NCBI GenBank assembly: GCA_043753995.1
Contig: JAYUVP010000011.1
Coordinates: 1 to 14,417, forward strand
Source of the DNA: Fibrobacterota bacterium
GTDB lineage: Bacteria; Fibrobacterota; Fibrobacteria; UBA11236
Reading direction: 5' to 3'
Length of the DNA: 14,417 bases
The first letter of the stretch is position 1; each line of letters begins with the position of its first letter. The notes beneath the pieces are model-generated. The model did no database searches, was not told where the DNA came from, and saw nothing but the letters and a program-made list of their open reading frames with translations. Made by a program: the position numbers and the translations under genes. This document shows, piece after piece, positions 1-14,417 of this stretch.

Positions 1-1021
1 ATAAGGTGCCCATGCCTGAGACCGTGACCGACTCCGCCAAGAATTGCGCCAGAATGGAGGAATCGCTGGCGCCTAAGGCCTTGCGCACACCAATCTCCCG
101 TAACCGGCTGGATACGGTGGCGAGCATGAGATTTAAAATGCCCACTCCACCGACGCCCAAGGCCATCAGGGCAATGGCCCAGCCCAACATGGAAAGCGCC
201 TCCGAGGCCTTGGCATTTTCCGCAATTTGTTCCTCAGCGGTGAGAATGGAAAAGTCGCGCACACCTCGGTGACTTTTTAACAGATAGGCGCGCATTTCAC
301 GCACTGCCGCGTCGGGTTCCATCTTGCTGCGCAGGCGCACCTTGATTGATTTTAATTTGCCTTGATCGCCCGCGAAGTGATGCAAATAAGCAGTATAGGG
401 ATAGTAAGCCACTCGCCTTCGCCAATCCAAGCGGCTGATGGAAGTGATTAGCCCAACCACGCGCCATTTCACCTTGCCGTATTCCAAAGTTTGGCCCAAG
501 GCCGCATAGCTTTCACCGAAAAGGTCGGCGGCCAATTTATCGCCTAAAACGCAAATCTCTTCGCCGCGATCCCAGGCCGGTGACAGGCGCGTTACGGGCT
601 CATGCCAATAGCCCACAGGAACATTATTCTGTTCGAAATAGAGCCAATTGATGGCCATGGCATGCCCGCTTTTCGGACCCTTGGGGCCACGCAGGGAATT
701 TTCCTTGTGCCAGCCCTCCGGCAAGAGTGCGTCGCAGCATTCGGCCCGACGCACAAAAGCCTGCATTTCCTCATAGCGCAATCCTTCGCTGCGCGAGAAA
801 GCGGCTTCTTCCTCGGGAGTCGCGGGGTCTACGGATTCCACCGTCAGCATGGACACGCCGCCCATGCGATTCATTTGCTTTTGCGATTCCTCTTTGGCGC
901 CACCGGTGAGGCTATTGAGCAATAAAACCGTGGCAATGCCGAGGCATATGGAAAGGAGGCTCAAGACACTCCTCCGCAAATTGGATCCGATTTCTCGCAA
1001 TCCCAGGCGCAAGCCTATCAT
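1..1021 (-). CDS. MacB/FtsX-family ABC transporter permease (partial, C-terminus runs off the left edge; alternative GTG start at 1054)
   Basis: Not in the ORF track; translated by hand. Open frame from ATG 1021 (MIGLRLGLREIGSNLRRSVLSLLSICLGIATVLLLNSL...) to the window edge with no stop. Contains MacB-type motifs GVGGVGILNLMLATVSSRLREIGVRKALGAS and ILAQFLAES. GGCGGAG precedes the ATG; an in-frame GTG at 1054 overlaps the ATPase stop (GTGA). Confidence 0.93.
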   Translation of the reverse strand, partial: MIGLRLGLREIGSNLRRSVLSLLSICLGIATVLLLNSLTGGAKEESQKQMNRMGGVSMLTVESVDPATPEEEAAFSRSEGLRYEEMQAFVRRAECCDALLPEGWHKENSLRGPKGPKSGHAMAINWLYFEQNNVPVGYWHEPVTRLSPAWDRGEEICVLGDKLAADLFGESYAALGQTLEYGKVKWRVVGLITSISRLDWRRRVAYYPYTAYLHHFAGDQGKLKSIKVRLRSKMEPDAAVREMRAYLLKSHRGVRDFSILTAEEQIAENAKASEALSMLGWAIALMALGVGGVGILNLMLATVSSRLREIGVRKALGASDSSILAQFLAESVTVSGMGTL

Positions 1022-1050
1022 GGCTCCGCCCGCATTTTCGCCTTGGCCTT

Positions 1051-1740
1051 TCACTTCTCAGCGGCTCCCAGAAGTCGACCGTCCCGCAGTATACGCAAGG
1101 AGCCCGCGGCATGGGCCACGTCCGCTTCATGGGTGATGAGGATGATGCTATGGCCTTCGGCATTCAAGGCGGAAAAAAGTTTCAAAATCTCCTGGGTGGT
1201 ATCCGAATCCAAATTGCCGGTGGGCTCGTCAGCCAGAATGAAGTCTGGCTTTTTCACCAAGGCACGGGCAATGGCGGCTCGCTGCTTTTGGCCACCGGAA
1301 ACTTCATGGGGTTTGTGCTTACGCCGCTCCCAAATGCCGAGGCGCTCAAGCATGGCCTGGACCAAGCGCTTTCTTTCACCGCTGGGTATGCCGGAATAAA
1401 TGAGAGGCAATTCAACATTTTGGGCCAAATTGAGTCGCGGCAAGAGATTGAAATTCTGAAATACAAATCCGATAGAGCGATTGCGAAGCCGCGCCAGGGC
1501 CGTGGCATTCGCCTCATGGACGGCCTGGCCATTCAACCAATATTGTCCAGAAGTCGGAGCATCGAGGCAACCGAGTATATGCAATAAAGTCGACTTGCCG
1601 GATCCCGAAGGGCCCATGATGGCGAGATAGGCCCCGCGCTCCACTTCGAGATCAATATCACGCAATACCGGAATTTCTTCCTTGCCCAGGCGATAGGCCT
1701 TGCAGACCTTTTGCAATCGAAGCAAGCTCATGCCAGCCAC
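1051..1740 (-). CDS. ABC transporter ATP-binding protein, MacB/LolD type (start GTG 1740 or ATG 1731)
   Basis: Walker A GPSGSGKST, Q-loop IGFVFQNFNLL, signature VSGGQKQRAAIARAL, Walker B ILADEPTGNLD, H-loop ITHE. Confidence 0.96.
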   Translation of the reverse strand: MAGMSLLRLQKVCKAYRLGKEEIPVLRDIDLEVERGAYLAIMGPSGSGKSTLLHILGCLDAPTSGQYWLNGQAVHEANATALARLRNRSIGFVFQNFNLLPRLNLAQNVELPLIYSGIPSGERKRLVQAMLERLGIWERRKHKPHEVSGGQKQRAAIARALVKKPDFILADEPTGNLDSDTTQEILKLFSALNAEGHSIILITHEADVAHAAGSLRILRDGRLLGAAEK

Positions 1741-1742
1741 AC

Positions 1743-2873
1743 TTATTTCGACCCACCATGAGGCGGCTTGCCGCCCGGACTCGCCATTTCATCGTCCATC
1801 AAGACCACTTCGCCTTCCTTGAGGCCAGCGGTGATTTCGATACGATTGAAATTATTAGCGCCCAAGGTCACGCTTCGTTTTTCCTTCCCATCCTTTCCAC
1901 TGGGCAAATACACGAAGGCACCTTCGCCCGCGCCGGTATGCACGCATTCATAAGGAAGGGACAAAACTTGCTTCACGTCGAACAGAGTGAATTCCACCGT
2001 GACCGTGGCGCCGGGAGGCAAAACTTTTTGAGCCTCCGCGTCGATGGTGTCGAGGGTGACGCGCACGTCGAATTGCCTCACATTGCGATCTTTGTTTTCC
2101 TTGGCCATGCGGCCGATATAATCCACCTGCCCTGGAAAACGAGCGCCCGGCTTGGCTTCGGTGGTGACATTCGCCTTTTGACCCAAGGACAAATGCGGAT
2201 AATCGAGCTCGGAAATCTTGACGGTCACCCGCCGTTTGGAAAGATCGGCCACGGTACCCAGGCTGGTACCTCCACCGAAAGAGGCCGTGCCCGCCACGAT
2301 GACTTCACCGGATTTCACTTCCAGTCCGATCAAATAACCCGTAAGCGGTGCCAGCACCGCCGTCTTGGACAATTGTATTTCGGTTTCGCGCAGGGCTAGG
2401 CTGTCTTGCCGCACTTGAATATGCGTTAGTTGTGCTTGCCACAGTTGATCTTGAATTTTCTGCGGGGAAATGCCTTCGACGGCGCGCAAACTTTCCGCCA
2501 TGGCGGCATTGCGCTGGGCTTGCGCATTTAAAATACGACTGCGCGCCAGGGATAATTGATCGCGTACACGGCGATTGAGCAATTGCTCCGGATCAATTTC
2601 AACTAACGTATCCCCTTTGCGAACTAAGTCTCCCTCCTCCACGCGCAAGCGCTTGATTTGGCCGGACACTTCGCTTTTAAGGCTTACTTCCTCAACGGCT
2701 TCTAGCACTCCGCTCAAGGTCAAGGCATCCTTTATATCTTGCCTTTCCACCTTGGCCGTGCGGCGCGTCGGCAGCTCGGATTTGGAGTTGCATGCCACCA
2801 GGGACAAGCTCATGACGGATGCGGCTAAAGCCATAACACCAAGTCGAAAAATCTTTTTTTGCTGTTGTATCAA
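1743..2873 (-). CDS. MacA/HlyD-family periplasmic adaptor (membrane fusion protein), probable lipoprotein
   Basis: Lipoyl-like halves (SEVSGQIKRLRVEEGDLVRKGDTLVEID; APLTGYLIGLEVKSGEVI), a coiled-coil hairpin and C-terminal GLKEGEVV. Start reassigned to TTG 2873: GGAAGGAG lies 7 nt upstream and TTGA overlaps the TolC stop. This gives a signal peptide ending in lipobox LVAC. Confidence 0.9.
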   Translation of the reverse strand: MIQQQKKIFRLGVMALAASVMSLSLVACNSKSELPTRRTAKVERQDIKDALTLSGVLEAVEEVSLKSEVSGQIKRLRVEEGDLVRKGDTLVEIDPEQLLNRRVRDQLSLARSRILNAQAQRNAAMAESLRAVEGISPQKIQDQLWQAQLTHIQVRQDSLALRETEIQLSKTAVLAPLTGYLIGLEVKSGEVIVAGTASFGGGTSLGTVADLSKRRVTVKISELDYPHLSLGQKANVTTEAKPGARFPGQVDYIGRMAKENKDRNVRQFDVRVTLDTIDAEAQKVLPPGATVTVEFTLFDVKQVLSLPYECVHTGAGEGAFVYLPSGKDGKEKRSVTLGANNFNRIEITAGLKEGEVVLMDDEMASPGGKPPHGGSK

Positions 2874-4435
2874 GGATGAACTCCTTCCAAAATCACGCCG
2901 CTGCCCACCAAGGCGCGACCATTCCATTTTTCAATTTCCGCATTCAAAAGGCGCAGGGCGACATAGGCCGAGGTTACATCCTGTTCGGCTTGCAAACGAT
3001 CGCGCGCTGATAATTGCAATTCGGTGAAATCAATATCTCCCAAGGCATGCCGTCTTTCTGCGATGCGGCTGCGCTTCTGCTCGAGCCCGACCTTCTCCTT
3101 TGCCATGCGAAAACGCTCGCCCTGGGTCGCATAGGCATCAATAAGGCGAGCCACGGTCGTGCGCAGTAGCGCCAGGGTTTGGGTGGAATCCAGTTTTTGT
3201 GCTTCAGCTTGCAAAAGTGTTTTTTGCAAATCACGGCTTGCCGACAAAGTGGGCAAGGTCCAAGCGAAGGTTGCCCCCAATCGCGCATCGGATCGACCGC
3301 CGATGGGCTTGCGCCAACTAGCCTGCAAATCCAGTTGTGGCTTTTCGGCATCGCGGGCGCGCTGGGCTTGCAATTCGAATCTCTGCTGCAAATGAGCCAA
3401 GCGCAACCAAGTTGGATGGCGCGAGCTCAGGGTCTTTTCCTCAATCGGCACGGGGGGTGGAGGCTCCGATTCCAAACTATCGATGAAAAGCAAGCCCAAG
3501 CCGGCCAAAACAGAATCGGCATGCCCCGCCACTTCAATATCCGACTGGCGCGGCGAGTCCCCCAGGAGCAAAATCAATTCGGCGACTTTACGGCGATAGG
3601 ACAGCCGACCTTCGAGTAAGCTTTGCCTCGCTCCCAAGGCTTGAATGCGATAACGCAAATATTCGTCTTCCGCCAAATCGCCAAGCCTATGCCTTGCTTC
3701 GGCGGTGCGAAGCGATAATTCCCAATAGGCCGAATCCGCCAGCAAGGATTGCATTTGCCTGACTTGAAGCATCATATTCCAATATTCAGTGCGGGCTTGG
3801 AAACTGGTGGCCAACAATTGGGCGCGCAATTCTGATTCGGCCAAGGCTTCTTCATTTCTAGCCATGGCTATGCTGGCTTGAACCTCTGAATGAGATCCGA
3901 AACCTCGCAATAAAGGCTGCCGCATATTCAGTGCGACAGATTGAGTGTCTCGCCAGGCGCCGCCTTCCGGGCGATGCGCACCTCCTTCTACCTGGGCGCC
4001 GATTTCGCCTCCTGTGGGCAAGGCTTGCTTTAGGCCAAGCGATGCTTGTGAAGCATAGCGGTCTTGGCCCGAACCTAGGTTGACATTGGTGTTACCCACG
4101 TTGAGCGTGGCGGGTCCTTTCGCATAAGGAGCGGTTTCCGCCGACGCCTCCAAAGTCCACATGGGCAGAAAAGCCTTTTCCGCCATTCGGGTATCCACAT
4201 TCGCGGCTCGTCGAATCAATCTTTGTCGCGCCAAGTCGCGATTGCTTTGCAATACTTTGCGTACCCAGTCGCGTTCTTCGGTAGGCCAAGCGGGAATTCC
4301 GGACGAATCACCTGGCGCCTGGGCTTCAGCGCCCGACCGACCTTCGACATGGGAAGCTTGGGCCAGAGGAATTTCGCCGACTAAACCCAGCCAGCCGCCG
4401 AACAAACAAAGGCTTATCGATTTACAAACGCCCAT
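2870..4435 (-). CDS. TolC-family outer membrane efflux channel
   Basis: Signal-peptide-like N-terminus and two OEP-like repeats (VLQSNRDL...FLPMWTLEAS; LKQALPTGG; LNMRQPLLRGFG; KPQLDLQAS; RHALGDIDFTEL). Lies directly upstream of the adaptor, ATPase and permease genes. Confidence 0.88.
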   Translation of the reverse strand: MGVCKSISLCLFGGWLGLVGEIPLAQASHVEGRSGAEAQAPGDSSGIPAWPTEERDWVRKVLQSNRDLARQRLIRRAANVDTRMAEKAFLPMWTLEASAETAPYAKGPATLNVGNTNVNLGSGQDRYASQASLGLKQALPTGGEIGAQVEGGAHRPEGGAWRDTQSVALNMRQPLLRGFGSHSEVQASIAMARNEEALAESELRAQLLATSFQARTEYWNMMLQVRQMQSLLADSAYWELSLRTAEARHRLGDLAEDEYLRYRIQALGARQSLLEGRLSYRRKVAELILLLGDSPRQSDIEVAGHADSVLAGLGLLFIDSLESEPPPPVPIEEKTLSSRHPTWLRLAHLQQRFELQAQRARDAEKPQLDLQASWRKPIGGRSDARLGATFAWTLPTLSASRDLQKTLLQAEAQKLDSTQTLALLRTTVARLIDAYATQGERFRMAKEKVGLEQKRSRIAERRHALGDIDFTELQLSARDRLQAEQDVTSAYVALRLLNAEIEKWNGRALVGSGVILEGVHP

Positions 4436-5144
4436 AATACCCCCGCCAATAGCGGCTCATGACGCCTAAGGCACGCAGGCCATAGCGCCAAGGATTGAGG
4501 TGGGAAACTTCTTCGGCATAACGCGTGGGTATGGCCATCTCCCCTACGCTCAATCCCTTGGCTCGGGCGGTGGCGATAGCCTCTAGGTCGAAATCGAAAT
4601 ACCCGCTGAGCTTGGTAAAGGGAATTTTTGCCAAGGCCTGCGGGCCATAAATCAAAAAGCCGCTGTGATAATCGGTCATGCGCAATCCGAAACAAAGGTT
4701 TTCCATGAAGGTGAGAATGCGGCCAGCGACATACTTATACAAAGGCATGCCCCCTTGCAAAGCCGTGTCAGCCAAATGCCTTGATCCTTGAAGCAAATCC
4801 CAAGGATGCTTTTGCATTAAAGCGATGCCATCGGCAATGGCCTCAGGCGGATATTGGCCATCGGCATGTAGACAAACGGCAAATTCGCAACCCGCCTCTC
4901 GGCAATGTTCAATGCCTCGCAAAACAGTCGCGCCATAGCCCTGGTTTTTTTGTGAGCGAAGGCATAGGAATTGTGCATGCCGGACTTTCCAAGCTTCAGC
5001 GACAGTATGGGTACCATCGCGGCTACCGTCATCGAGGACAACCACGGTACGGCATTGATTCCAAACAGAATCAGGAATGCGCGCCAACAAATCAGGCAAG
5101 GTCTTCGCCGCCTGATAGGCCGGGATGAAAATCCCCCACTTCAT
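4422..5144 (-). CDS. Family 2 glycosyltransferase (DPM1/polyprenol-phosphate glycosyltransferase-like)
   Basis: IFIPAYQAA, VLDDGSRDGT, NQGYGATV, CLHADGQYPP (HAD variant of DxD), LLQGSR, TDYHSGF, FDLE and IPTRY motifs. ATGA overlap with the upstream gene. Confidence 0.93.
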   Translation of the reverse strand: MKWGIFIPAYQAAKTLPDLLARIPDSVWNQCRTVVVLDDGSRDGTHTVAEAWKVRHAQFLCLRSQKNQGYGATVLRGIEHCREAGCEFAVCLHADGQYPPEAIADGIALMQKHPWDLLQGSRHLADTALQGGMPLYKYVAGRILTFMENLCFGLRMTDYHSGFLIYGPQALAKIPFTKLSGYFDFDLEAIATARAKGLSVGEMAIPTRYAEEVSHLNPWRYGLRALGVMSRYWRGYYGRL

Positions 5145-6061
5145 GGCTTATCCCAACCCGCCGCCAAGCGCAGGCTTTGTTCCGTGGGCAGAAAACCGCG
5201 CGGTTGAAAATCAAAGTCGCCTTGCAAATCGCTGATATCCGGTGCGGCGTCTTGCAATAAGCCCAGCATGCCCTGTCGCCCCACCGAACCCCCGGGACGA
5301 AAATGATCGGCCCAATCGGCAGCCGACAAAGCCAAGCCACGTGGCAAGGACAAGCAAATCCGGCGCAGCCGCAAACCCTTGGCAATGGCCGTGGTCATGC
5401 TCCGCAAGCTGAGGCATTGGCCACCCGCCAAAGCATAGGTCTTGCCAAAGCTTTGGGATTGCATCGGTAATTGGGCAAGCAAGGACCCAGCATCCTCGGC
5501 ATGCAGGGGACGCTTCAAGGCCTTACCCCCTTCCGGCAAGGCAAACAGGGGGTAACGCGCAACATACTGGACCAAGGCGGCGAATTCCAGGGCTCCACCC
5601 TGGTCGTCATAAATCAAGGTGGGCCGAATCACGGTCCAATGGGGCAATTTTGACGCTTGCAAGGCGGCCTCTGCGTCAAGCTTGGAAATGGCATAGGGAC
5701 TCAATGCGCTATAGGTCACCGAAATGGAGGAAATGAAAACAAAATGTTGCACGCCCGCCATTTCACTGGCAGCAATCAAATTGCGAGTGCCTTGCGCATT
5801 GATCCTTTCAAACTCGGCGGGATCACGACTCTGCAAAATCCCCGCCAAGTGCATCACAGCCGAAACGCCTCGACAAGCGGGTATTAGACTTTGAGCGTCG
5901 CGAATATCACCCACCAGGCATTCAAAATTGGGTGACGATAAATCGGGCTGGGCTTCCGTCGCCAAGCGCAATGCGCGCACATGAAAACCGCTATCCAATA
6001 GCTTTTTCAATAAGGGCCTTCCCAACCGACCCAAACCGCCCGTGATCAAAATGCTTGGCAT
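5141..6061 (-). CDS. NAD-dependent epimerase/dehydratase (extended/atypical SDR)
   Basis: N-terminal ILITGGLGRLG Rossmann motif, GDIRD, VMHLAG, INAQGTRNL, FISS, catalytic YAISK (YxxxK), IRPTLIY. ATG 6061 preferred over TTG 6067. Confidence 0.92.
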   Translation of the reverse strand: MPSILITGGLGRLGRPLLKKLLDSGFHVRALRLATEAQPDLSSPNFECLVGDIRDAQSLIPACRGVSAVMHLAGILQSRDPAEFERINAQGTRNLIAASEMAGVQHFVFISSISVTYSALSPYAISKLDAEAALQASKLPHWTVIRPTLIYDDQGGALEFAALVQYVARYPLFALPEGGKALKRPLHAEDAGSLLAQLPMQSQSFGKTYALAGGQCLSLRSMTTAIAKGLRLRRICLSLPRGLALSAADWADHFRPGGSVGRQGMLGLLQDAAPDISDLQGDFDFQPRGFLPTEQSLRLAAGWDKP

Positions 6062-6107
6062 GCCCAAAGAGATATCCGCTAAAATAGGGAAACTACAAAA
6101 GCCCCTT

Positions 6108-6116
6108 TGTTACAAT
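6108..6116 (+). promoter_or_regulatory. Putative extended -10 promoter (TGtTACAAT) for the acylase gene
   Basis: TG-n-TACAAT in the 65-bp divergent intergenic gap, 10 nt before ATG 6127; no Shine-Dalgarno sequence. Confidence 0.55.
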
Positions 6117-6126
6117 TGCCGCCAGC

Positions 6127-8607
6127 ATGCGCGTCTTTCTTTGGCTTTGCCAGATTGTTCTGGCAGTGGGACTTCTTGTAGGCTTCGGAGCGAAATGGGG
6201 CTCCCTGCCTCGCCTGGCCCCTTTCTTATCTCCCTTCGAGGGCTTTTGGCGCAATGCGGAAGCCGACCCGGTGCGCCCCAAGGCCACGCTATCCCTTGTC
6301 GGGCTGGATCATGCGGTGAATGTGGTTCGCGACAAGCGGCATGTTCCGCACCTTTTTGCGTCTTCGGAAAAAGACCTGTATGTGGCTCAGGGCTTTGTCA
6401 CGGCCAGCGATCGCCTTTGGGAAATGGACGTGGTCACGCGAGAGGCGGGTGGCCGCCTGGCCGAAGTGATGGGAACCGCCCTCCTTGAGCATGACAAGAT
6501 GCGCCGCCGCTATGGCTTATTAGAGGCCGCCAAGGCCATGGAGGGTGGCTTTCTTAAGCATGAAGGCACTCGTCGCGCCGTACAAGCCTATACCGATGGC
6601 GTCAATGCGTACTTAGCTCAGCTCAAACCACGTGACTGGCCACTGGAATTCAAGTTGCTCGATTATGCTCCTGAACCCTGGACCCCACTTAAGACGGCCT
6701 TGCTCATCGCCAGCATGCAATGGACGCTGAGCGCGAGCGAACACGATCAGCCCTTGACCGCGACCTTTGGAAAATATGGCGCGCTTTTCTTTCGCAAGTT
6801 CTTCCCGTCCCATGATTTGGAAGTGCCCACCATTATTCCCCCCGGCACCCCCTGGGGATTCGCTTCGACCCCACCCCAGCCGGATTCTGCGCGTAGCGAC
6901 TCCCTGGCGCCGCCCGTCCTGCCTGCGGAGCTGGACTCCACGCCATCCCGCGCCGATAGTGGTTTGCGTGAAAAGGCACGCTTGCCTGCGAATTATCATG
7001 GCAGCAATAATTTTATTCTCAGCGGGTCGCGCACGCGCTCGGGTAAACCCTTGTTGGCCAATGATCCGCATCTCGATTTGGGCTTGCCTTCGACTTGGTA
7101 TGAAATGCAATTGCGGTCACCGGGCCTCAATGTCTATGGCGTTTCCCTGCCGGGTGTGCCGGGGATTGTCACTGGCTTTAATGACAGTTTGGCCTGGGGC
7201 CTTACCAATGGTGCCGATGATGTCTTCGATTGGTATCGCGTAAAATTCCGCGACTCGACCTTGCACGAATACTTTCATAACGGGCGCTGGGTCGACACGC
7301 GCCAACGCATCGACACCTTTACCGTGCGCGGGGGCGTCCCGATTTTTGACACCGTAACCCTCACCCATCATGGCCCCATCGTCTGGCGTGAACCCGAGGC
7401 CTCCAAAGGACGCAATGCTCCTTTATTGCATGCCCTGCGCTGGCTTGCTCATGACACCAGCGATGAAGTCGGAGCGCTATTGCGCTTGCAAGGATGCGGC
7501 ACCGTGAATTGCTTTCAAGAGGCGATCACCGGTTTTGCCTGTCCTTCCCAGAACTTTGCCGTCGCCAGCATCACGGGTGACATTGCCTTATTTCACATGG
7601 GTCGCTTCCCTTGGAAATGGCCGGGACAAGGTCGACTCATCCTGGATGGATCCGATGCGCGTCACGATTGGCAAGGTTGGGTGCCTTGGGAGAGAATTCC
7701 CAAATCGATGAATCCCAGCCAGGGATTTCTTTTCTCTGCCAATCAAGAGCCGGTCGATTCAACCTATCCCTATCATTTGGGTAATAGCTATACCAACCCC
7801 GATCGCGCCGTGCAATTGGGCGAAAGACTCGCCACCCTCCATAATGCTGATTTCGACTCTGCTTTTTCGGTGCTGCAAGACGACAAAGGACAGCATGCCA
7901 TGCGCATTCTTCCCCTCATGCTGGGACTGCTGGATTCGCTATCCTTAAAATCACCCGAAGACACCCTGGTCGATCTTTTGCGGCACTGGGACTATCACTA
8001 TCGCCCGGAAGGCTTTGCGCCCACCGTTTTCGAGGCCTGGTGGCAATCGCTTTATCGAGCTATTTGGAGCGATGATTTCGGGGAAGATAGCGAGCATTAT
8101 AATTGGCCAAATCTCAAAGTCACCCGGCGACTCATGCAGGAAGAGTCCGCCTCGCCATGGTTTGACGATGTCCGTACACCTCAAACTGAAAGCTTACGTG
8201 ATTTAACCCATGCCACCCTTCGCAGCGCCATTGCCCAACTACGTAGCGATCTCGGACCGTCGGTAAGGCAATGGGCTTGGTCGCGTCGTCGTCCCGTGAC
8301 TATTAAACATTTATTGCGCCTACCCTCGCTCGGTTGGGACAGCCTCATTGTCGGCGGCTGCACTGATTGCATTCAAGCCCAAAGAAGTGGACATGGGCCG
8401 TCCTGGCGAATGGCGGTTAGCCTAACCGATCCCCCGCAAGCTTATGGCATATTCCCCGGCGGCGTTAGCGGAAATCCAGGTTCGCGTCATTACGATGATT
8501 TTGTGAATGATTGGGCCCTGGGTAAGCATTATGCCTTAACCCGCTACTTGAGATTGCCCGATACCGAAGACACCAGCGTCTTTCATCAGACCTTGGAGCC
8601 GCAATGA
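6127..8607 (+). CDS. Penicillin acylase family protein (peptidase S45, Ntn hydrolase), exported or membrane-anchored
   Basis: N-terminal hydrophobic anchor; alpha-subunit motifs VVRDKRHVPHLFA and AQGFVTASDRLWEMD; Pro-rich spacer; beta-subunit nucleophile G/SNNF (Ser293, nt 7003-7005); LLANDPHL; WGLTN; SANQ; PGGVSGNPGSRHYDD. Confidence 0.95.
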   Translation: MRVFLWLCQIVLAVGLLVGFGAKWGSLPRLAPFLSPFEGFWRNAEADPVRPKATLSLVGLDHAVNVVRDKRHVPHLFASSEKDLYVAQGFVTASDRLWEMDVVTREAGGRLAEVMGTALLEHDKMRRRYGLLEAAKAMEGGFLKHEGTRRAVQAYTDGVNAYLAQLKPRDWPLEFKLLDYAPEPWTPLKTALLIASMQWTLSASEHDQPLTATFGKYGALFFRKFFPSHDLEVPTIIPPGTPWGFASTPPQPDSARSDSLAPPVLPAELDSTPSRADSGLREKARLPANYHGSNNFILSGSRTRSGKPLLANDPHLDLGLPSTWYEMQLRSPGLNVYGVSLPGVPGIVTGFNDSLAWGLTNGADDVFDWYRVKFRDSTLHEYFHNGRWVDTRQRIDTFTVRGGVPIFDTVTLTHHGPIVWREPEASKGRNAPLLHALRWLAHDTSDEVGALLRLQGCGTVNCFQEAITGFACPSQNFAVASITGDIALFHMGRFPWKWPGQGRLILDGSDARHDWQGWVPWERIPKSMNPSQGFLFSANQEPVDSTYPYHLGNSYTNPDRAVQLGERLATLHNADFDSAFSVLQDDKGQHAMRILPLMLGLLDSLSLKSPEDTLVDLLRHWDYHYRPEGFAPTVFEAWWQSLYRAIWSDDFGEDSEHYNWPNLKVTRRLMQEESASPWFDDVRTPQTESLRDLTHATLRSAIAQLRSDLGPSVRQWAWSRRRPVTIKHLLRLPSLGWDSLIVGGCTDCIQAQRSGHGPSWRMAVSLTDPPQAYGIFPGGVSGNPGSRHYDDFVNDWALGKHYALTRYLRLPDTEDTSVFHQTLEPQ

Positions 8608-8951
8608 TTTTCGTTTTCACCTTGCTGCTCACCTGGATAGGTGCTTGGTTTTTTCCTTGGTGGTGGGGTGCCATTGCGGCCAGTCTTGTGGCGTTCTGGA
8701 GACTTCGACGTTTGTGGTGGCTATTGCCCCAAGCCTTTGTTGCGGGAGGTGTAGCTTGGCTATTGCCTGCTTTGCAAATGGACTTGGCAAATGCATCCCT
8801 ATTGTCCAGCCGCCTCGCCCATCTCTTTCACCTTCCCGGGCCCCAAGGCATGCTGCTCGCCACTGCGATGGCTGGCGGCATCATCGCCGCCCTCGGCGCT
8901 ATCGCCGGCCAACGCATGCGAAAAACCATGCAAGCCTTGCGTGAAGATTAA
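8604..8951 (+). CDS. Small integral membrane protein (3-4 TM), unknown function
   Basis: Very hydrophobic 115 aa with FPWWW motif; ATGA overlap with the acylase stop indicates translational coupling. Confidence 0.85.
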   Translation: MIFVFTLLLTWIGAWFFPWWWGAIAASLVAFWRLRRLWWLLPQAFVAGGVAWLLPALQMDLANASLLSSRLAHLFHLPGPQGMLLATAMAGGIIAALGAIAGQRMRKTMQALRED

Positions 8952-8960
8952 GCCGGAGCC

Positions 8961-9887
8961 CTAAGCCGCGGCTTTGACTTTTTTCATTCGGCTTTCGCGA
9001 CTCAAAATCCAACCGCCCACCAAGGTCAAAGCTAAACCGGCAGCATTGAGCCAGGTGAGTGGCTCCTGCAAGGTGAAGTGTCCCAAGAAAAGTGTGAATA
9101 CCGGGCCGACCATGCCGAGTACCGCGGTGCGCTCAGGGCCTAAGGCTCGTAATGCCGTCCCTAATAGCAAGGTCGGCACAACCGTGCCCAAGATCGCCAC
9201 CACCACGGCATAACCATGAACAGGCACGGATGCAAGCCATTCGCCGGAGGGCACGAGCCAAACTGCCTGGGCGAGGACCATCACCGTGCACACCATCATC
9301 CCACCAATGAAAAGCCTTTCCGGGCCAAGACGCTGGATGTGCTTGCCGCTATAAATCAGGAAAAGCGCATAGGTCACGGCACTGCCGAATATGAGCAAAA
9401 CGCCTTTCCAAGCTTGCCCCATCGGTGAAACCCGAGCCTCTTCACCAAAGGCCATGACCAACCCGCCATAGCCTAGCAGCATGGCAAATATCAGAGGACG
9501 GCTCAGAGTACGCCGGAAAAACAGCCAACCGAAGATCACGACCAAGGAGGGATGGGTATAAAGGATGAGCCTTTCCATTCCCGCCGAGACATAAAGCAAT
9601 CCGGCAATATCCATGACTCCCGATAAATAATATCCGACCAATCCCAAAATCAGAATGATGAACCAATCACGAGCGGCCAATTCCGGTAAGCCCTGTTCGC
9701 GCGCTTGACGAAGGGCGCGAAACCACAGGAAAAGGAAAATCGGAAATGCATAGGCCATTCGCAAAGCCATAAAAAGCCAAATCGAGGCACCGTGCATAAA
9801 GGCGAGCTTCATCAGCACGCCCTTGCCCGAAAACAAAATGGCCGAGGCCATAGCTGCCGCTATACCCATTGACGAGGAGACTCGCAT
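8961..9887 (-). CDS. EamA/DMT-family transporter (about 10 TM, two EamA repeats); start uncertain (9902, 9887 or 9869)
   Basis: SAILFSGKGVLMKLAF, LRMAYAFP, GLLYVSAGMERLILYTHPSLVV and LGMVGPVFTLFLGHFTLQEPLT are EamA-repeat motifs. GAAAGG precedes ATG 9887. The ORF-track start at 9950 lies in the terminator U-tract. Confidence 0.92.
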   Translation of the reverse strand: MRVSSSMGIAAAMASAILFSGKGVLMKLAFMHGASIWLFMALRMAYAFPIFLFLWFRALRQAREQGLPELAARDWFIILILGLVGYYLSGVMDIAGLLYVSAGMERLILYTHPSLVVIFGWLFFRRTLSRPLIFAMLLGYGGLVMAFGEEARVSPMGQAWKGVLLIFGSAVTYALFLIYSGKHIQRLGPERLFIGGMMVCTVMVLAQAVWLVPSGEWLASVPVHGYAVVVAILGTVVPTLLLGTALRALGPERTAVLGMVGPVFTLFLGHFTLQEPLTWLNAAGLALTLVGGWILSRESRMKKVKAAA

Positions 9888-9948
9888 GATGCCTTTCCGC
9901 ATGCTAACGCTTGTGGCCGAGACTTCGGTCTCTTCTGACGCGGACCTC

Positions 9949-9989
9949 AAAACAAAGAGGCCCGCTTCAGGGAGAAGCGGGCCTCTTTG
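9949..9989 (-). terminator. Rho-independent terminator (attenuator 3:4 hairpin) upstream of the EamA gene
   Basis: Perfect 16-bp inverted repeat (9953-9968 with 9974-9989, 5-nt loop). On the minus strand it ends CUUUGUUUUG. Confidence 0.9.
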
Positions 9990-10014
9990 CCACGAACCGT
10001 TTAGGATGTCGTGA

Positions 10015-10095
10015 TCAAGACCCGCATGGAAAAGCCACGACTTTACGCGCCCAAATAATTAGGTAGGTAGGAGTTGTCGTGACGATGCGGATCAT
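10015..10095 (-). CDS. Putative attenuator leader peptide, 26 aa MIRIVTTTPTYLIIWARKVVAFPCGS (31 aa if started at ATG 10110)
   Basis: Hand-translated sORF below the track cutoff. 12 of 26 residues are Ile, Thr, Val or Leu, clustered as IRIVTTTPT, LII and VV. The stop is about 25 nt before the terminator stem. Confidence 0.75.
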   Translation of the reverse strand: MIRIVTTTPTYLIIWARKVVAFPCGS

Positions 10096-10186
10096 TTTTG
10101 AAATAGACATCTCGGGTTCGTCTTTGGCAACCCACCCGTTTTTACCCGTCTTTTCGGATTGGGAATGCGAATAATTCGATATGGCT

Positions 10187-10195
10187 TGATACTTT
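10187..10195 (+). promoter_or_regulatory. Putative extended -10 promoter (TGaTACTTT)
   Basis: TG-n-TAnnnT followed by 7 nt and then ATG 10203; no Shine-Dalgarno sequence. Confidence 0.45.
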
Positions 10196-10202
10196 ATGAC
10201 CT

Positions 10203-11087
10203 ATGCCGCGAAAAACACAACCCGGGCTATCCTTTTCTTTAGCGGTTCTTCTGGGCTTGTCACCCATCTGCTTGATGCATTGCGAAATGCCCGGTGGCGA
10301 TCCTGCGTCTTCGGTACTTTCCATTCTCAATAAAAGGCCCGCCAGTTTTCACGAACGATTGGTGGCATTAGATGCTTTGATTCGCCGATACCAAGGCTTA
10401 GAACCCCGTTCGGAATTCGTGGAAAGCTTGACAGTACAAGAGGGCTTGCTCAAAAATCGTCTACTGAGTATTTCCGATCCCGAGGCGAAATTAACCGCCC
10501 TGAAATCTTTTGTCTTCGACTCCTTGAAGTTACAGCCTGTCTCCGGACCGACCAGCCTCGATCTTTCCCTGCCTAGTCGCGTTCTAGAAGATCGCAAAGG
10601 TTCCTGTGTTGGCTTGACCTTGCTTTTTTTAGCCTATGCCGAGGCCGTGAATTTGCCGCTACGTCCGGTGTTTTTGCCAAGCCATATCACACTTTCACTC
10701 GACATCCAGGGGAAAACTCGCTATCTGGAAACCTTGAAGCCGACTCTTGAAAGAGATTCTGCTTTTTATGCCCAAACCTTTCTCCTTGCAAAGCGGCCAT
10801 GGTATGCTGCCTTATCCTCGAAGCCGCCAGAGGCGGCCTTACTGGCCCTAATCTTCAATTTCGCCAATACTCAGCATGATCAGGGCCAAGAGGATTGGGC
10901 CCAAGACCTCTATCGGCTAATCAATCAGTCGTTGCCGCAATTCCCAGAAGCCGCTGGCAATTTAGGTCTCTTACTTCATCACAAGAAACTCCCGGACCAG
11001 GCCAAACCCTGGTTGGATACGGCTTTGGCCGGAGACACCTTGGGTGGCCAAAAAGCTCTTTCCATACTTCGTTCAAGTTCGCATTGA
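10203..11087 (+). CDS. SirB1/transglutaminase-like (Transglut_core2-type) protein with C-terminal TPR-like helices; possible exported protein or lipoprotein
   Basis: LPSRVLEDRKGSCVGLTLLFLAYAEAVNLPLRPVFLPSHITL...YLET matches the SirB1-like core. TPR-like PQFPEAAGNLGLLLHHKKLPDQAKPWLDTAL. Hydrophobic N-terminus ending LMHC. Confidence 0.8.
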   Translation: MPRKTQPGLSFSLAVLLGLSPICLMHCEMPGGDPASSVLSILNKRPASFHERLVALDALIRRYQGLEPRSEFVESLTVQEGLLKNRLLSISDPEAKLTALKSFVFDSLKLQPVSGPTSLDLSLPSRVLEDRKGSCVGLTLLFLAYAEAVNLPLRPVFLPSHITLSLDIQGKTRYLETLKPTLERDSAFYAQTFLLAKRPWYAALSSKPPEAALLALIFNFANTQHDQGQEDWAQDLYRLINQSLPQFPEAAGNLGLLLHHKKLPDQAKPWLDTALAGDTLGGQKALSILRSSSH

Positions 11088-11112
11088 ACGCTTGGGTTGC
11101 CGCGTGTAGATT
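11084..11112 (+). promoter_or_regulatory. Putative sigma70-type promoter TTGAAC-N17-TAGATT
   Basis: -35 at 11084-11089, 17-nt spacer, -10 at 11107-11112, 8 nt before the TTG at 11121. Confidence 0.5.
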
Positions 11113-11120
11113 AGTCTTCC

Positions 11121-12428
11121 TTGAAATCTTCACTTCGAATTCATTTATGCGGCAGCAATCGCGATCTCGCGAGCGAGCGCCATGCCCTATTGGCCTGGCT
11201 GGAAGATTGCAGGCTGCGGACGCCCCATTTCAGCTATTTCGGAGCGCGCACCCTTCCTAGCCTGGAAAGCGCCTTACAAGACATCGCCGCCAGTGATGTC
11301 ATTATTCTGGTGGTGGGCCATCTCTATGGCATAGTGTCTCCCGGCCAAAATCGCGCCCAGGAAGAAAGGGAATACGAAGAAGCGACTCGCCTCGGAAAAA
11401 CCATTCTGGTCTATTTACGCGATGAAGAATCAGGTCGAGTTCCCGGCTCAGTCGAACGGGACGCCGTTAAAATCCCCTTATTGCAAAATTTTCGGCGAAG
11501 ACTCTCGGAACAACATAAAGCCAAAACTTTTCGCGATCAGACGCAGCTGACCCAGATTTTGGAGAGCGATATCCTCAGCATTTTGAGCGAAAGAGGATTG
11601 CAGCGCAAACAAATCGACAAGCCTTTATTGCGCACTCGAGCTACCACACCCGAAACAGATAAAGGCAATCAAGGTGATGGATCTTTAGGCGGCTCTTCGA
11701 ATGACTCTGGAACGCGGACCTTGCCCCTTCTACAAAAGGCCCTATCCACGCCATTTTCTCCATCGGGTCCACCTCGAAACAAAAATTGGCGTGGCACCGC
11801 CCTCCTTGCCATCCTAATTGCCCCGCTTTTGGCTCTAGGTTTATGGAAGGGAAATTGGCTGCAGCACCTCTCCAGCCCAAAAACGAATTTGGCGCCGCTC
11901 AGCCCTATTGCCATTGATAGTACCGCCAAGGACACACTTTCAGAATTAGGGGACACCCTGGCATTATCTGATTCGATGTCAGTGAATGCTGCGCCACCCC
12001 CCGTTGAATCTAGGCCCGACCCATTGGCCACCCTATTAACCAAGGCTAAAGAGGGAGACACGACGGCATTATTGCAGGTGGGAACCATGTATGATTCCGG
12101 ACTGACCTTGCCTCAAGATGATTCTCTTGCCACCTCGCATTATCGCCGTGCGGCTTCTAATGGAATGGCCGAAGCCCAGTATCGCCTGGCCTTGAGGCAT
12201 TTAGCCGGGAAAGGTGCCAAGCGAAGTAAAGCCCAGGCTATGTTCTGGCTACAATCAGCCGCCACAAAAGGTCATGCCGTCGCGCAAAGCCATATGGGAC
12301 GCATTTATTTCAAGGGCCAAGGCTATCCGCGCGATGAAGCTTTAGGCCTCAAATGGCTTCTGAAGGCAGCAGATCAAAAAGACCCTGAAGCTGAGAGAAT
12401 ATTGGCTGAAATCAAGGGGCAGCCTTAA
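11121..12428 (+). CDS. DUF4062 (TIR-like) domain + single TM + Sel1-like repeat protein
   Basis: The N-terminus RIHLCGSNRDLASERHAL...IAASDVIILVVGHLYG...EEREYEEATRLGKTILVY fits DUF4062. TM GTALLAILIAPLLALGLW at about 11793-11846. Three Sel1 repeats (ALLQVGTMYDSG...AASNG; AQYRLALRHLAGKG...AATKG; AQSHMGRIYFKGQG...KAADQK). Confidence 0.85.
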   Translation: MKSSLRIHLCGSNRDLASERHALLAWLEDCRLRTPHFSYFGARTLPSLESALQDIAASDVIILVVGHLYGIVSPGQNRAQEEREYEEATRLGKTILVYLRDEESGRVPGSVERDAVKIPLLQNFRRRLSEQHKAKTFRDQTQLTQILESDILSILSERGLQRKQIDKPLLRTRATTPETDKGNQGDGSLGGSSNDSGTRTLPLLQKALSTPFSPSGPPRNKNWRGTALLAILIAPLLALGLWKGNWLQHLSSPKTNLAPLSPIAIDSTAKDTLSELGDTLALSDSMSVNAAPPPVESRPDPLATLLTKAKEGDTTALLQVGTMYDSGLTLPQDDSLATSHYRRAASNGMAEAQYRLALRHLAGKGAKRSKAQAMFWLQSAATKGHAVAQSHMGRIYFKGQGYPRDEALGLKWLLKAADQKDPEAERILAEIKGQP

Positions 12429-12454
12429 GGGCTAAGGGCTAAAGTACCGAGAAT

Positions 12455-13135
12455 TTATTTTGAACGGCGAATGAGAAGCGCCTCGCCTCGGGAAATACGA
12501 AGGTCGGAGAGGCTCCGTAAGGCTGCATCCAAAGCCAAGGTATCGGAAACCATGCGTCTTGGATCTAATCGATTGTCGCGATTGAAAGAAGAAACCGGTA
12601 CATCCTTTCCATTCATTTTGGCTTGTATCAAGGTGATTTGAATCCGGCCTTTTTCAAAGCCTGCTGTCGCCCTCATTTCGGAATTCAACCATCCTTTGGG
12701 ATGAAACAAACGAATTAGCCAAGCAACCGGCCCACCTAATTGGATAGCAGGCAAAACATTGCTGAGGGCCAAAACCGAGTCTTCGATTTTTAGACGATAG
12801 GTTTCGCCATTTTTTCCCATCACCTCTGTACAGCGAAGCAAGTGATTCATTTCTAATTCGCTTAACTTCAAGGTATCGGCAGCCATGCCTGAATCCTGTG
12901 AAATGTCTGCGACAAAACCACTTACTTTGGACAAAACTTTCGCTTGCTCCACCTTGGATACTGGAATGGAATCAAGGACGGCCGGACTTTCAGACACCAA
13001 ACTTTTCAATTGTCGGTATTGGAAAATCATCAAAATTGACCCTATGGCCACTAGGGCAATGGGCAAACCTAAGGCGAAGGCCAGGAAAGATTTTCTGACA
13101 AAGGGAGGGTTTTCAGGAGCTGGATGAGAATTCAT
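12455..13135 (-). CDS. Hypothetical protein with N-terminal membrane anchor
   Basis: Open frame with TM SFLAFALGLPIALVAIGSILMIF. Start moved to ATG 13135 because the track's extension crosses a terminator and overlaps the subunit IV gene. Confidence 0.75.
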   Translation of the reverse strand: MNSHPAPENPPFVRKSFLAFALGLPIALVAIGSILMIFQYRQLKSLVSESPAVLDSIPVSKVEQAKVLSKVSGFVADISQDSGMAADTLKLSELEMNHLLRCTEVMGKNGETYRLKIEDSVLALSNVLPAIQLGGPVAWLIRLFHPKGWLNSEMRATAGFEKGRIQITLIQAKMNGKDVPVSSFNRDNRLDPRRMVSDTLALDAALRSLSDLRISRGEALLIRRSK

Positions 13136-13142
13136 ATTGGGC

Positions 13143-13178
13143 AAAAAATAAGCCCTGCCGAGAGACTCGACCGGGCTT
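13143..13178 (-). terminator. Rho-independent terminator of the cytochrome c oxidase operon
   Basis: Minus strand AAGCCC-G-GUCGAG-ucu-CUCGGC-A-GGGCUU followed by AUUUUUUG, about 20 nt after the subunit IV stop. Confidence 0.8.
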
Positions 13179-13199
13179 GAATTCTTTCTGTTGCAAAGT

Positions 13200-13676
13200 T
13201 TAGTGGCTTTTGGTTTCCGTCGAGGCTTCAGCAGGGGCACCAGCCTTATGAGCTGCGGCCTTGGCATTTTCCTTCATCACGGGCGATTCCCAATTAATGT
13301 CCTGGGTAAAAGACTTTTCAATCTCTCCGCGAAAGGCATGATCCGCCCAGGTGAAGGTGACGAAAATCGCCAGGAAGGGGAAATTGGCTAAGAAAACAAC
13401 CACATTGATGAGCTTTTTCTCGAAGGCCAGACCCATAAGAACGAGGGCCGTCAAAACACCCATGCAAAGGGCAATACCGAGTATCACCGCGGTGCGGACG
13501 GTTTGCATATCGAATAGGTGAGCCATGGCACAAAGAAAATTGTTTGTGTCCTTGCACTGGGACCAAGCAATCACTTCAATTTGGGAAAAGCCAATCATCA
13601 AGGCAGCCAAAAACATGAGGCCAATATAGGTGGCTATTAAGGAACGAAAGCTATAGGTATGGCCAGGTTGTTGCAT
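13200..13676 (-). CDS. Cytochrome c oxidase subunit IV family protein (divergent, 158 aa)
   Basis: Three TM helices (YIGLMFLAALMIGF; AVILGIALCMGVLTALVLMGL, matching the LxIAxxKxxLVxxxFMHL pattern; VVFLANFPFLAIFVTFTWAD). Directly after subunit III; GGGGTG RBS before ATG 13676. Confidence 0.75.
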   Translation of the reverse strand: MQQPGHTYSFRSLIATYIGLMFLAALMIGFSQIEVIAWSQCKDTNNFLCAMAHLFDMQTVRTAVILGIALCMGVLTALVLMGLAFEKKLINVVVFLANFPFLAIFVTFTWADHAFRGEIEKSFTQDINWESPVMKENAKAAAHKAGAPAEASTETKSH

Positions 13677-13681
13677 TGTAT

Positions 13682-14344
13682 TCACCCCACCAAATAAAGC
13701 ATGGGAAAGAGGAAAACCCATACCAAGTCTACCAAGGCCCAATAAAGCCCAGCCATTTCCACCGGCGTAAACCAGCTGCGAGTGAATTTCTCACGCGTGG
13801 AAATCCAAAGGCACCAAATCATCAAACCCATCCCGACCAGGACGTGGATAGCATGCAGGCCAGTCATGATGAAATAAAGTCCGAAAAAGACATGGGTATG
13901 CGGATCCGTAAAGCCTTCTCCGTGGAAATAGGAGCCCGGTAAGGTGCCGTGATGGATTTTGGCTTGATACTCAATGGTTTTCACCACTAAAAATCCGCAA
14001 GCTAAAACTAGGCTCAGAATTAAATTCGCGCGAACCTTACCCTGATTGCTTTGCTGCGCATAATACGCGGCCAAGGCCATGGTCAAACCACTGGTGAGCA
14101 AGAAGAAGGTATTTACCGTGCCAAGACGCCAATCGAGATGGCTGGAACCTTCATGGTAGGCACCAGGCCAACGCGTCATAAAAATGATGAGCCCGACAAA
14201 AAGTGCGCCGAACATCATGATTTCAGAAGCCAAGAACAGCCACATACCAGTCTTGTGCGAGTCGAACTCCTGGTCTAAATCATCAAAGTGATGAGCGACC
14301 TCATGGGTTTTAAGGCCGGACGAGGCCGAGGCTAAATTGGCCAT
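13682..14344 (-). CDS. coxC: Cytochrome c oxidase subunit III (short 5-TM form)
   Basis: GMWLFLASEIMMFGALF, NTFFLLTSG, FFGLYFIMTGLHAIHVLVG, GLYWALVDLVWVFLFPMLYL. Confidence 0.96.
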   Translation of the reverse strand: MANLASASSGLKTHEVAHHFDDLDQEFDSHKTGMWLFLASEIMMFGALFVGLIIFMTRWPGAYHEGSSHLDWRLGTVNTFFLLTSGLTMALAAYYAQQSNQGKVRANLILSLVLACGFLVVKTIEYQAKIHHGTLPGSYFHGEGFTDPHTHVFFGLYFIMTGLHAIHVLVGMGLMIWCLWISTREKFTRSWFTPVEMAGLYWALVDLVWVFLFPMLYLVG

Positions 14345-14417
14345 TAGGCTTTCTCCGTGGGGTATTCGTAGGGACCATGAGTAACAATAGGTGTTTCCGT
14401 AAAATTGAATAGCACGG
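14344..14417 (-). CDS. coxA: C-terminal end of cytochrome c oxidase subunit I (partial)
   Basis: Hand translation VLFNFTETPIVTHGPYEYPTEKA* matches the NF...P.V..GPYEY tail of subunit I. TAATG overlap with the subunit III start. Confidence 0.85.
   Translation of the reverse strand, partial: VLFNFTETPIVTHGPYEYPTEKA

Follow-up and report, generated by a model that had tools for sequence, protein, structure and literature searches.

Leader-peptide attenuation is textbook biology. In the attenuators of the Escherichia coli thr, ilv, leu, trp, his, and phe operons, a translated short open reading frame (ORF) precedes the hairpins 1:2, 2:3, and 3:4 and an intrinsic terminator, and the leader stop codon lies beside the antiterminator strand. 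Nearly all leader-peptide attenuators known to us control biosynthetic operons and rely on runs of codons. Here we describe an attenuator of this architecture located before an EamA-type drug/metabolite transporter (DMT) permease gene in a Fibrobacterota bacterium (GenBank assembly GCA_043753995.1, contig JAYUVP010000011.1, positions 1 to 14,417; this whole stretch of 14,417 nt is referred to as the window). It has all of the E. coli features listed above, and in the window isoleucine (Ile), valine (Val), and threonine (Thr) codons are also found on region 1. It differs from the E. coli systems in that a DMT permease is controlled, that one conserved tryptophan (Trp) codon is found rather than a run, that most EamA leader ORFs appear to be leaderless, and that many relatives have no clear region 1.

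Permease genes have been linked to Trp in other ways. In E. coli, tnaC has one critical Trp codon about a dozen codons before its stop, and the operon includes a Trp permease; termination is Rho-dependent, free Trp is sensed, and further conserved residues are required. In Bacillus subtilis, the permease YcbK is presumably also an EamA-type protein. According to two reports, ycbK is TRAP regulated and its product is still uncharacterised (PMC10327191, PMC13170310). The genes rtpA-ycbK and trpP resemble the present locus in that membrane-protein genes are tied to Trp or tRNA-Trp status, but they depend on the TRAP protein and T-box RNA control, whereas a leader peptide is used here. A literature search that left subscription journals outside its scope returned no leader-peptide attenuator before an EamA gene and no description of attenuation in Fibrobacterota.

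The leader and its transporter gene

The EamA protein of the window was searched in 41 related genomes, with a match in 32, and the upstream DNA was inspected for each orthologue. A second sample of orthologues was drawn from a species-genome collection, in which the relatives are uncultured Fibrobacterota. A fixed rule, applied with duplicates removed, yielded 29 unique leader-EamA units. It had passed over L011 and L027, and these two were added by script, together with G179 from a further genome of the order, to give 32. Two loci ending at a contig edge and two distant homologues from another family (21-27% identity) were excluded. The G021 leader is identical to that of L039, so no count rests on G021. 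A short ORF and a strong terminator were present upstream of EamA in all 32 orthologues with readable upstream DNA. These orthologues belong to an order-level clade of uncultured Fibrobacterota and one sister family, and represent several genera and families. No strong upstream terminator was found for 11 EamA orthologues of Bacteroidota or Leptospiraceae. The terminator-to-gene gap was 5-58 nt in most relatives, leaving little space for a separate EamA promoter, and no gene 3' of EamA was conserved among them. Judging from these sequence comparisons, the leader-EamA unit appears to be an old, self-contained module that was inherited with the EamA gene, and we consider it very probable that it is a functional ribosome-mediated attenuator dedicated to that gene.

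The 191-nt leader of the window folded at -80.2 kcal/mol, against -49.7 ± 4.3 kcal/mol for 200 shuffled sequences (z = -7.1, with no shuffle as good). Folding gave three competing, mutually exclusive helices, 1:2, 2:3, and 3:4. The Rfam model Thr_leader (RF00506) matched with 32.6 bits (E = 0.0075), under its gathering score of 55, in an alignment carried by the terminator. The features of the leader and of the gene behind it are as follows.

10110-10015, minus strand: leader ORF of 31 codons plus TGA (ATG at 10110, TGA at 10017-10015)
10095, minus strand: second in-frame leader ATG, which gives 26 codons
10076-10093, minus strand: region 1, the anti-antiterminator strand, codons 7-12 (I R I V T T), from minimum free energy folds
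10051-10053, minus strand: single Trp codon UGG, 36 nt (12 codons) before the stop
10019-10041, minus strand: region 2, from the 2:3 helix, family-wide pairing, and covariation
10093-10019, minus strand: helix 1:2, -26.1 kcal/mol
10027-9976, minus strand: helix 2:3, the antiterminator, -24.0 kcal/mol
9990-10014, minus strand: small hairpin just 3' of the leader stop, inside the antiterminator helix, from folding
9991-9951, minus strand: helix 3:4, the terminator, with the U-tract reaching 9949, -34.1 kcal/mol
9949-9990, minus strand: intrinsic terminator, a 17-bp stem (9990-9974 with 9968-9952) plus U-tract, from folding
8961-9898, minus strand: EamA/DMT permease gene with its Shine-Dalgarno sequence, from Pfam PF00892 and orthologue alignments

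In the proposed mechanism, transcription would begin at, or slightly 5' of, the leader ORF. The antiterminator strand at 10025-10017 forms the 3' part of region 2, pairs with 9985-9977, and overlaps the leader stop codon. A ribosome reaching that stop would cover the strand, the terminator at 9990-9949 would form, and transcription would end before EamA. A ribosome held earlier would leave the strand to pair with the 5' arm of the terminator at 9985-9977, with read-through into EamA. Stalling ahead of the last ~6 codons would set the switch to ON.

This pairing is conserved among relatives. In an alignment of 27 leaders, the terminator consensus comprised 11 pairs in 27 sequences, and 84.4% of antiterminator cells were paired, compared with 33-56% when the partner columns were slid. 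Double changes occurred at three antiterminator pairs, and the observed values were reached by 5-7 of 500 shuffles. Because the leader sequences are highly conserved, the covariation at L011 and L027 is more telling: in both, the terminator stem has diverged in sequence, with matching changes in the strand on which the leader ORF ends. The hairpin at the stop codon had moderate support in relatives (65% paired versus 26-44% slid). Region 1 is clear in the window. In most relatives, the free RNA already folds the antiterminator, which also forms at nearly every stall up to 6-10 codons before the stop.

EamA in the window probably starts at ATG 9887, which is preceded by GGAAAGG (9898-9892) and lies 61 nt from the end of the U-tract. 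An alternative start, ATG 9902, is 46 nt from the U-tract; the ORF frame is 8961-9950. The stop codons of EamA (8961) and of a convergent ORF are 9 nt apart, so EamA is the sole gene that the attenuator could control. Two further features of the locus are as follows.

8604-8951, plus strand: convergent ORF of 115 aa with no family match, which bounds the transcription unit
10102-10130, minus strand: possible weak promoter, uncertain, TTGCCA (10130-10125), 17-nt spacer, TCTATT (10107-10102)

In 24 of 29 leaders (for example, L045 and L034), the ATG follows a near-consensus promoter (TTGACN, 16-18 nt, NANNNT) at a distance of 6-9 nt, and with the -10 hexamer so close to the ATG these leader ORFs are probably leaderless. 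No such near-consensus promoter precedes ATG 10110 in the window. The weak look-alike there ends 6 nt before the in-frame ATG 10095, a geometry like that of the relatives. Its -10 hexamer is without the usual A at position 2, and it was not reported by a consensus scan. That scan, covering 8800-10400, returned no sigma-70-like promoters and hence none between the terminator and EamA, a weak negative because the leader's own promoter was missed as well.

The original prediction, made from the window alone, had described a starvation-type attenuator wired to an EamA transporter. The attenuator was confirmed, and what had been seen in the sequence proved right in every detail. It had also held that EamA is the only gene downstream, about 60 nt away and followed by a convergent gene, which agrees with the distances of 61 nt and 9 nt given above. 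A separate EamA promoter downstream of the terminator, which would have counted against the claim, was not seen within the limits of the scan. The link between leader and EamA held in the comparison of synteny as well: all 32 readable orthologues of the clade have it, and the opposite picture, with the leader before a biosynthetic gene and absent before EamA, was not observed.

The signal read by the leader

An in-frame Trp codon lies 33-51 nt (11-17 codons) before the stop in all 32 leaders, whereas the distance from start codon to Trp ranges from 51 to 138 nt. Alignments anchored on this Trp contained no second invariant residue, and the peptides have diverged almost beyond alignment. The flanking codons vary, and since the nucleotides around Trp vary, it is the codon that is conserved and not an RNA motif. 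Trp was absent from the equivalent place in all 27 leaders of the same design that precede cimA, ilvB, leuA, ilvD, argD-like genes, or gltB.

Two models of the fold around a stalled ribosome were compared, one in which pairing is confined to RNA 3' of the ribosome, the customary assumption in kinetic models of attenuation, and a harsher one in which RNA on both sides may pair. Under the 3'-only model, a stall at Trp permitted the antiterminator in 29 of 29 leaders, and a ribosome at the stop left at most 3 antiterminator pairs in 28 of 29. The last codon at which a stall is permissive comes 2-9 codons (mode 6) after Trp. This position of Trp points to charged tRNA-Trp as the conserved input. 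The family-wide hold-up site would then be the invariant Trp codon (10053-10051 in the window), responding to the supply of charged tRNA-Trp. In this copy, six Ile/Val/Thr codons on region 1 would make a shortage of those amino acids an additional ON input. EamA would be made when Trp, and here possibly Ile, Val, or Thr too, limits translation, and the best fit would be a transporter serving uptake or relief, with Trp, an aromatic precursor, or an antagonist as its substrate. We favor this account of the input, a conserved response to tRNA-Trp supply with Ile/Val/Thr added in this copy, only tentatively, and it stands slightly nearer to doubt than to belief.

Several observations weigh against the Trp account. 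Under the both-sides model, a stall at Trp in the window gave no antiterminator, and about 9 of 29 leaders, the window included, had fewer than 5 pairs at Trp (as read from the profiles). A single sensor codon is atypical; before other genes of this phylum, the same design comes with runs of 4-10 codons. The EamA protein is not poor in Trp (orthologue mean 1.57% versus 1.64% for the long ORFs of this genome, and 2.9% for the window protein), no Trp leader precedes the trpE or trpBA-tyrA-aroA clusters of this genome, and trpB was found in each of the 41 relatives, so there is no tie to Trp auxotrophy. These missing corollaries (EamA Trp content, trpB, and trp leaders) lower the odds of the Trp account without excluding it. 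The rule that picked ORFs for the 29 units demanded a Trp; extractions free of that demand returned the same ORFs except at the identical loci L013/L039, where a longest-ORF rule took an overlapping frame. Finally, the promoter before the leader of the window is not convincing.

The original prediction had named Ile, Val, and Thr as the signal. Read as the full explanation in this genome, this would mean that a stall at codons 7-13 masks region 1 and that Trp has no sensing role. The leader of the window places I-R-I-V-T-T-T exactly on region 1 (10093-10076), with six of seven codons for Ile, Val, or Thr, and it is the outlier among 29 leaders, at 39% Ile, Thr, and Val against 11-29% (median 19%) in the others. 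Its fold profile under the both-sides model agrees, because the antiterminator formed only with the ribosomal A-site at codons 1-13, 15, and 16, and not at Trp, at the stop, or in free RNA. With these codons on region 1 and this profile, this copy should turn ON when Ile, Val, or Thr runs short, and an Ile-run leader precedes the citramalate synthase gene of the same genome. The run, however, does not recur in any of the 28 other unique leaders. No closer relative of the genus was found: the best orthologue is 40-42% identical, the order as a whole comprises 39 genomes, and a metagenome scan yielded 3 loci, each with a 42-residue, 38% match only. The I-R-I of region 1 is in addition constrained for the most part by pairing with the antiterminator strand, being one of three frames of a strand bound to match it, and the Trp kept 12 codons before the stop is left unexplained. 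The predicted signal is thus supported for this copy only, in which the run lies on region 1 and the antiterminator folds accordingly; Ile, Thr, or Val as the signal of the EamA leaders at large is not supported. That these amino acids alone are sensed in this genome, and Trp not at all, we regard as unlikely.

Somewhat less probable still is arrest by the nascent peptide. Trp would then occupy the exit tunnel at a distance of 10-16 residues from the peptidyl-transferase center and modulate pausing or release at the end of the leader with no ligand or with a small molecule (free Trp or a ribosome-targeting compound), setting the time for which the antiterminator is covered. The spacing from Trp to stop resembles that in TnaC, SecM, and VemP. 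It is also this spacing (11-17 codons), and not that from start to Trp, which is constrained, and the same genomes have, before a methyltransferase-like gene, a second family of single-Trp leaders. The full set of TnaC hallmarks is lacking, in that Trp alone is invariant, no C-terminal residue is conserved, the stop codons are mixed (TGA, TAG, and TAA), and the Trp spacing varies by 6 codons; the intrinsic terminator of the EamA leaders is a further difference, and the additional residues of TnaC are not conserved in them. A stall over the antiterminator strand would moreover mean OFF, so arrest would need a separate on-signal. We think it improbable that Trp anchors a new kind of nascent-peptide sensor, in which the terminating ribosome reads a small molecule and so sets how long the antiterminator is covered.

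A generic sensor of translation rate is a little less probable again. Any slowing of the leader ribosome, by general starvation or by ribosome-stalling antibiotics and whatever the amino acid, would then induce a DMT efflux pump, as might suit a leader whose antiterminator, in most relatives, forms in free RNA and at nearly every early stall, and a protein that belongs to the drug/metabolite transporter superfamily. Such a sensor leaves the invariant Trp codon and its fixed place unexplained.

The suggestion, also part of the original prediction, that the attenuator was left behind when an ilv or thr gene was lost is rejected as highly improbable; its link to EamA would then be incidental. In its favor are the cimA, ilvB, leuA, and ilvD attenuators of the phylum, which have the same design. 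Against it, all 32 readable orthologues carry the unit, in several genera and families and with little distance between terminator and gene, and the Trp codon sets the EamA leaders apart as a group.

Related attenuators before other Fibrobacterota genes

A covariance model built from the EamA leaders was run on 151 Fibrobacterota genomes and matched 122 of them, with many matches covering the terminator only. The full-length matches before other genes were attenuators of the classical kind, which suggests that leader-peptide attenuation is common in this phylum, with run-type sensors of 4-10 codons. Leaders with Val, Ile, or Leu runs preceded the gene for the large subunit of acetolactate synthase (ilvB) at 11 loci, and the same design was found before isopropylmalate synthase, ilvD, two transaminases of the argD family, and glutamate synthase. 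The cimA, ilvB, leuA, and ilvD attenuators share terminator and antiterminator sequences with the EamA leaders, and in both groups the ORF ends on the antiterminator strand. They differ in that they precede biosynthetic genes and carry Ile, Val/Ile/Leu, or Leu runs, whereas the EamA leaders are without a run.

Two examples lie in the genome of the window. At C294:16740-16914 (plus strand), a leader of 20 codons with an Ile run (L-I-I-R-I-I) and a terminator precede a citramalate synthase gene (TIGR00977, 637 bits), with equivalents in eight relatives; here an Ile attenuator of the classical type serves the citramalate pathway to isoleucine. At C43:17502-17560 (minus strand), a leader of 18 codons with a Leu run and a terminator lie 112 nt before a 530-aa gene, a candidate whose N-terminus resembles isopropylmalate synthase. 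The acetolactate synthase, ilvD, isopropylmalate synthase, argD-family, and glutamate synthase loci (L084-L101) belong to other Fibrobacterota classes; in this design, the G-rich strand on which the leader ORF terminates repeats the sequence of the terminator's 3' arm.

The second, unrelated family of single-Trp leaders occurs in this genome (C353:17946-18069, plus strand) and in three genomes of another genus (L102, L103, and L107). In its leaders, the single invariant Trp lies 28-32 codons ahead of the stop, with Arg as the next residue. The gene after the leader (L067:1633-2358) is conserved, ~240-300 aa in length, and methyltransferase-like. It had no Pfam match even at E = 1; PDB entry 9ri2, a putative methyltransferase, matched at E = 5.6e-5, and Atlas gave weak methyltransferase leads. 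The arrangement recalls drug-inducible methyltransferase and efflux leaders, as treated in a published account (PMC6851288). This second family hints at a small regulon and leaves some room for a nascent-peptide or drug-sensing reading.

The permease, its surroundings, and their meaning

The EamA protein matched PF00892 over two stretches (E = 4.6e-25, 88.9 bits against a cut-off of 28.2). Its match to the NCBIfam equivalog TIGR00950 (carboxylate/amino acid/amine transporter) reached 69.8 bits, under the curated cut-off of 230.2. A single-sequence search of PDB returned nothing relevant. With a profile of the orthologues, the best solved structure was YddG (5i20, E = 0.0018), an aromatic amino-acid exporter; the two share the DMT fold family, a likeness at the level of the superfamily that gives no substrate. 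The original prediction had offered an importer and a valve against toxicity as possible roles. Under either of them, Trp is a likelier amino acid than Ile, Val, or Thr.

In the window, a penicillin-amidase family gene (6127-8607, plus strand) overlaps the start of the convergent 115-aa ORF (8604-8951) by 4 nt. Divergent from the leader are a transglutaminase-like gene (10203-11087, plus strand) and then a gene with DUF4062 and Sel1 repeats (11121-12428, plus strand), a neighborhood that is absent around the EamA loci of relatives. At L020 and L026, a gene for a transporter of the major facilitator superfamily follows EamA at -4 and +2 nt and, being so close, may share its transcript and attenuator. 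An ORF conserved upstream of the unit in one genus had no Pfam match.

A whole clade of uncultured Fibrobacterota thus ties a leader-peptide attenuator to a DMT/EamA permease, with a Trp codon at a fixed place as the sole conserved sensing feature. The re-use of one design for cimA, ilvB, leuA, ilvD, and other genes makes these loci a compact natural set on the re-targeting of attenuators. If Trp anchors an arrest sensor, Fibrobacterota would have a small "Trp-leader regulon" that comprises a DMT permease and a modifying enzyme. If the supply of tRNA-Trp is the input, one rare codon would suffice as a sensor, and the EamA leaders would be a third route to a Trp-controlled permease, after TRAP/T-box and TnaC. 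They would then also give an uncharacterised DMT subfamily a testable substrate hypothesis, with Trp, an aromatic compound, or an indole compound as the candidate.

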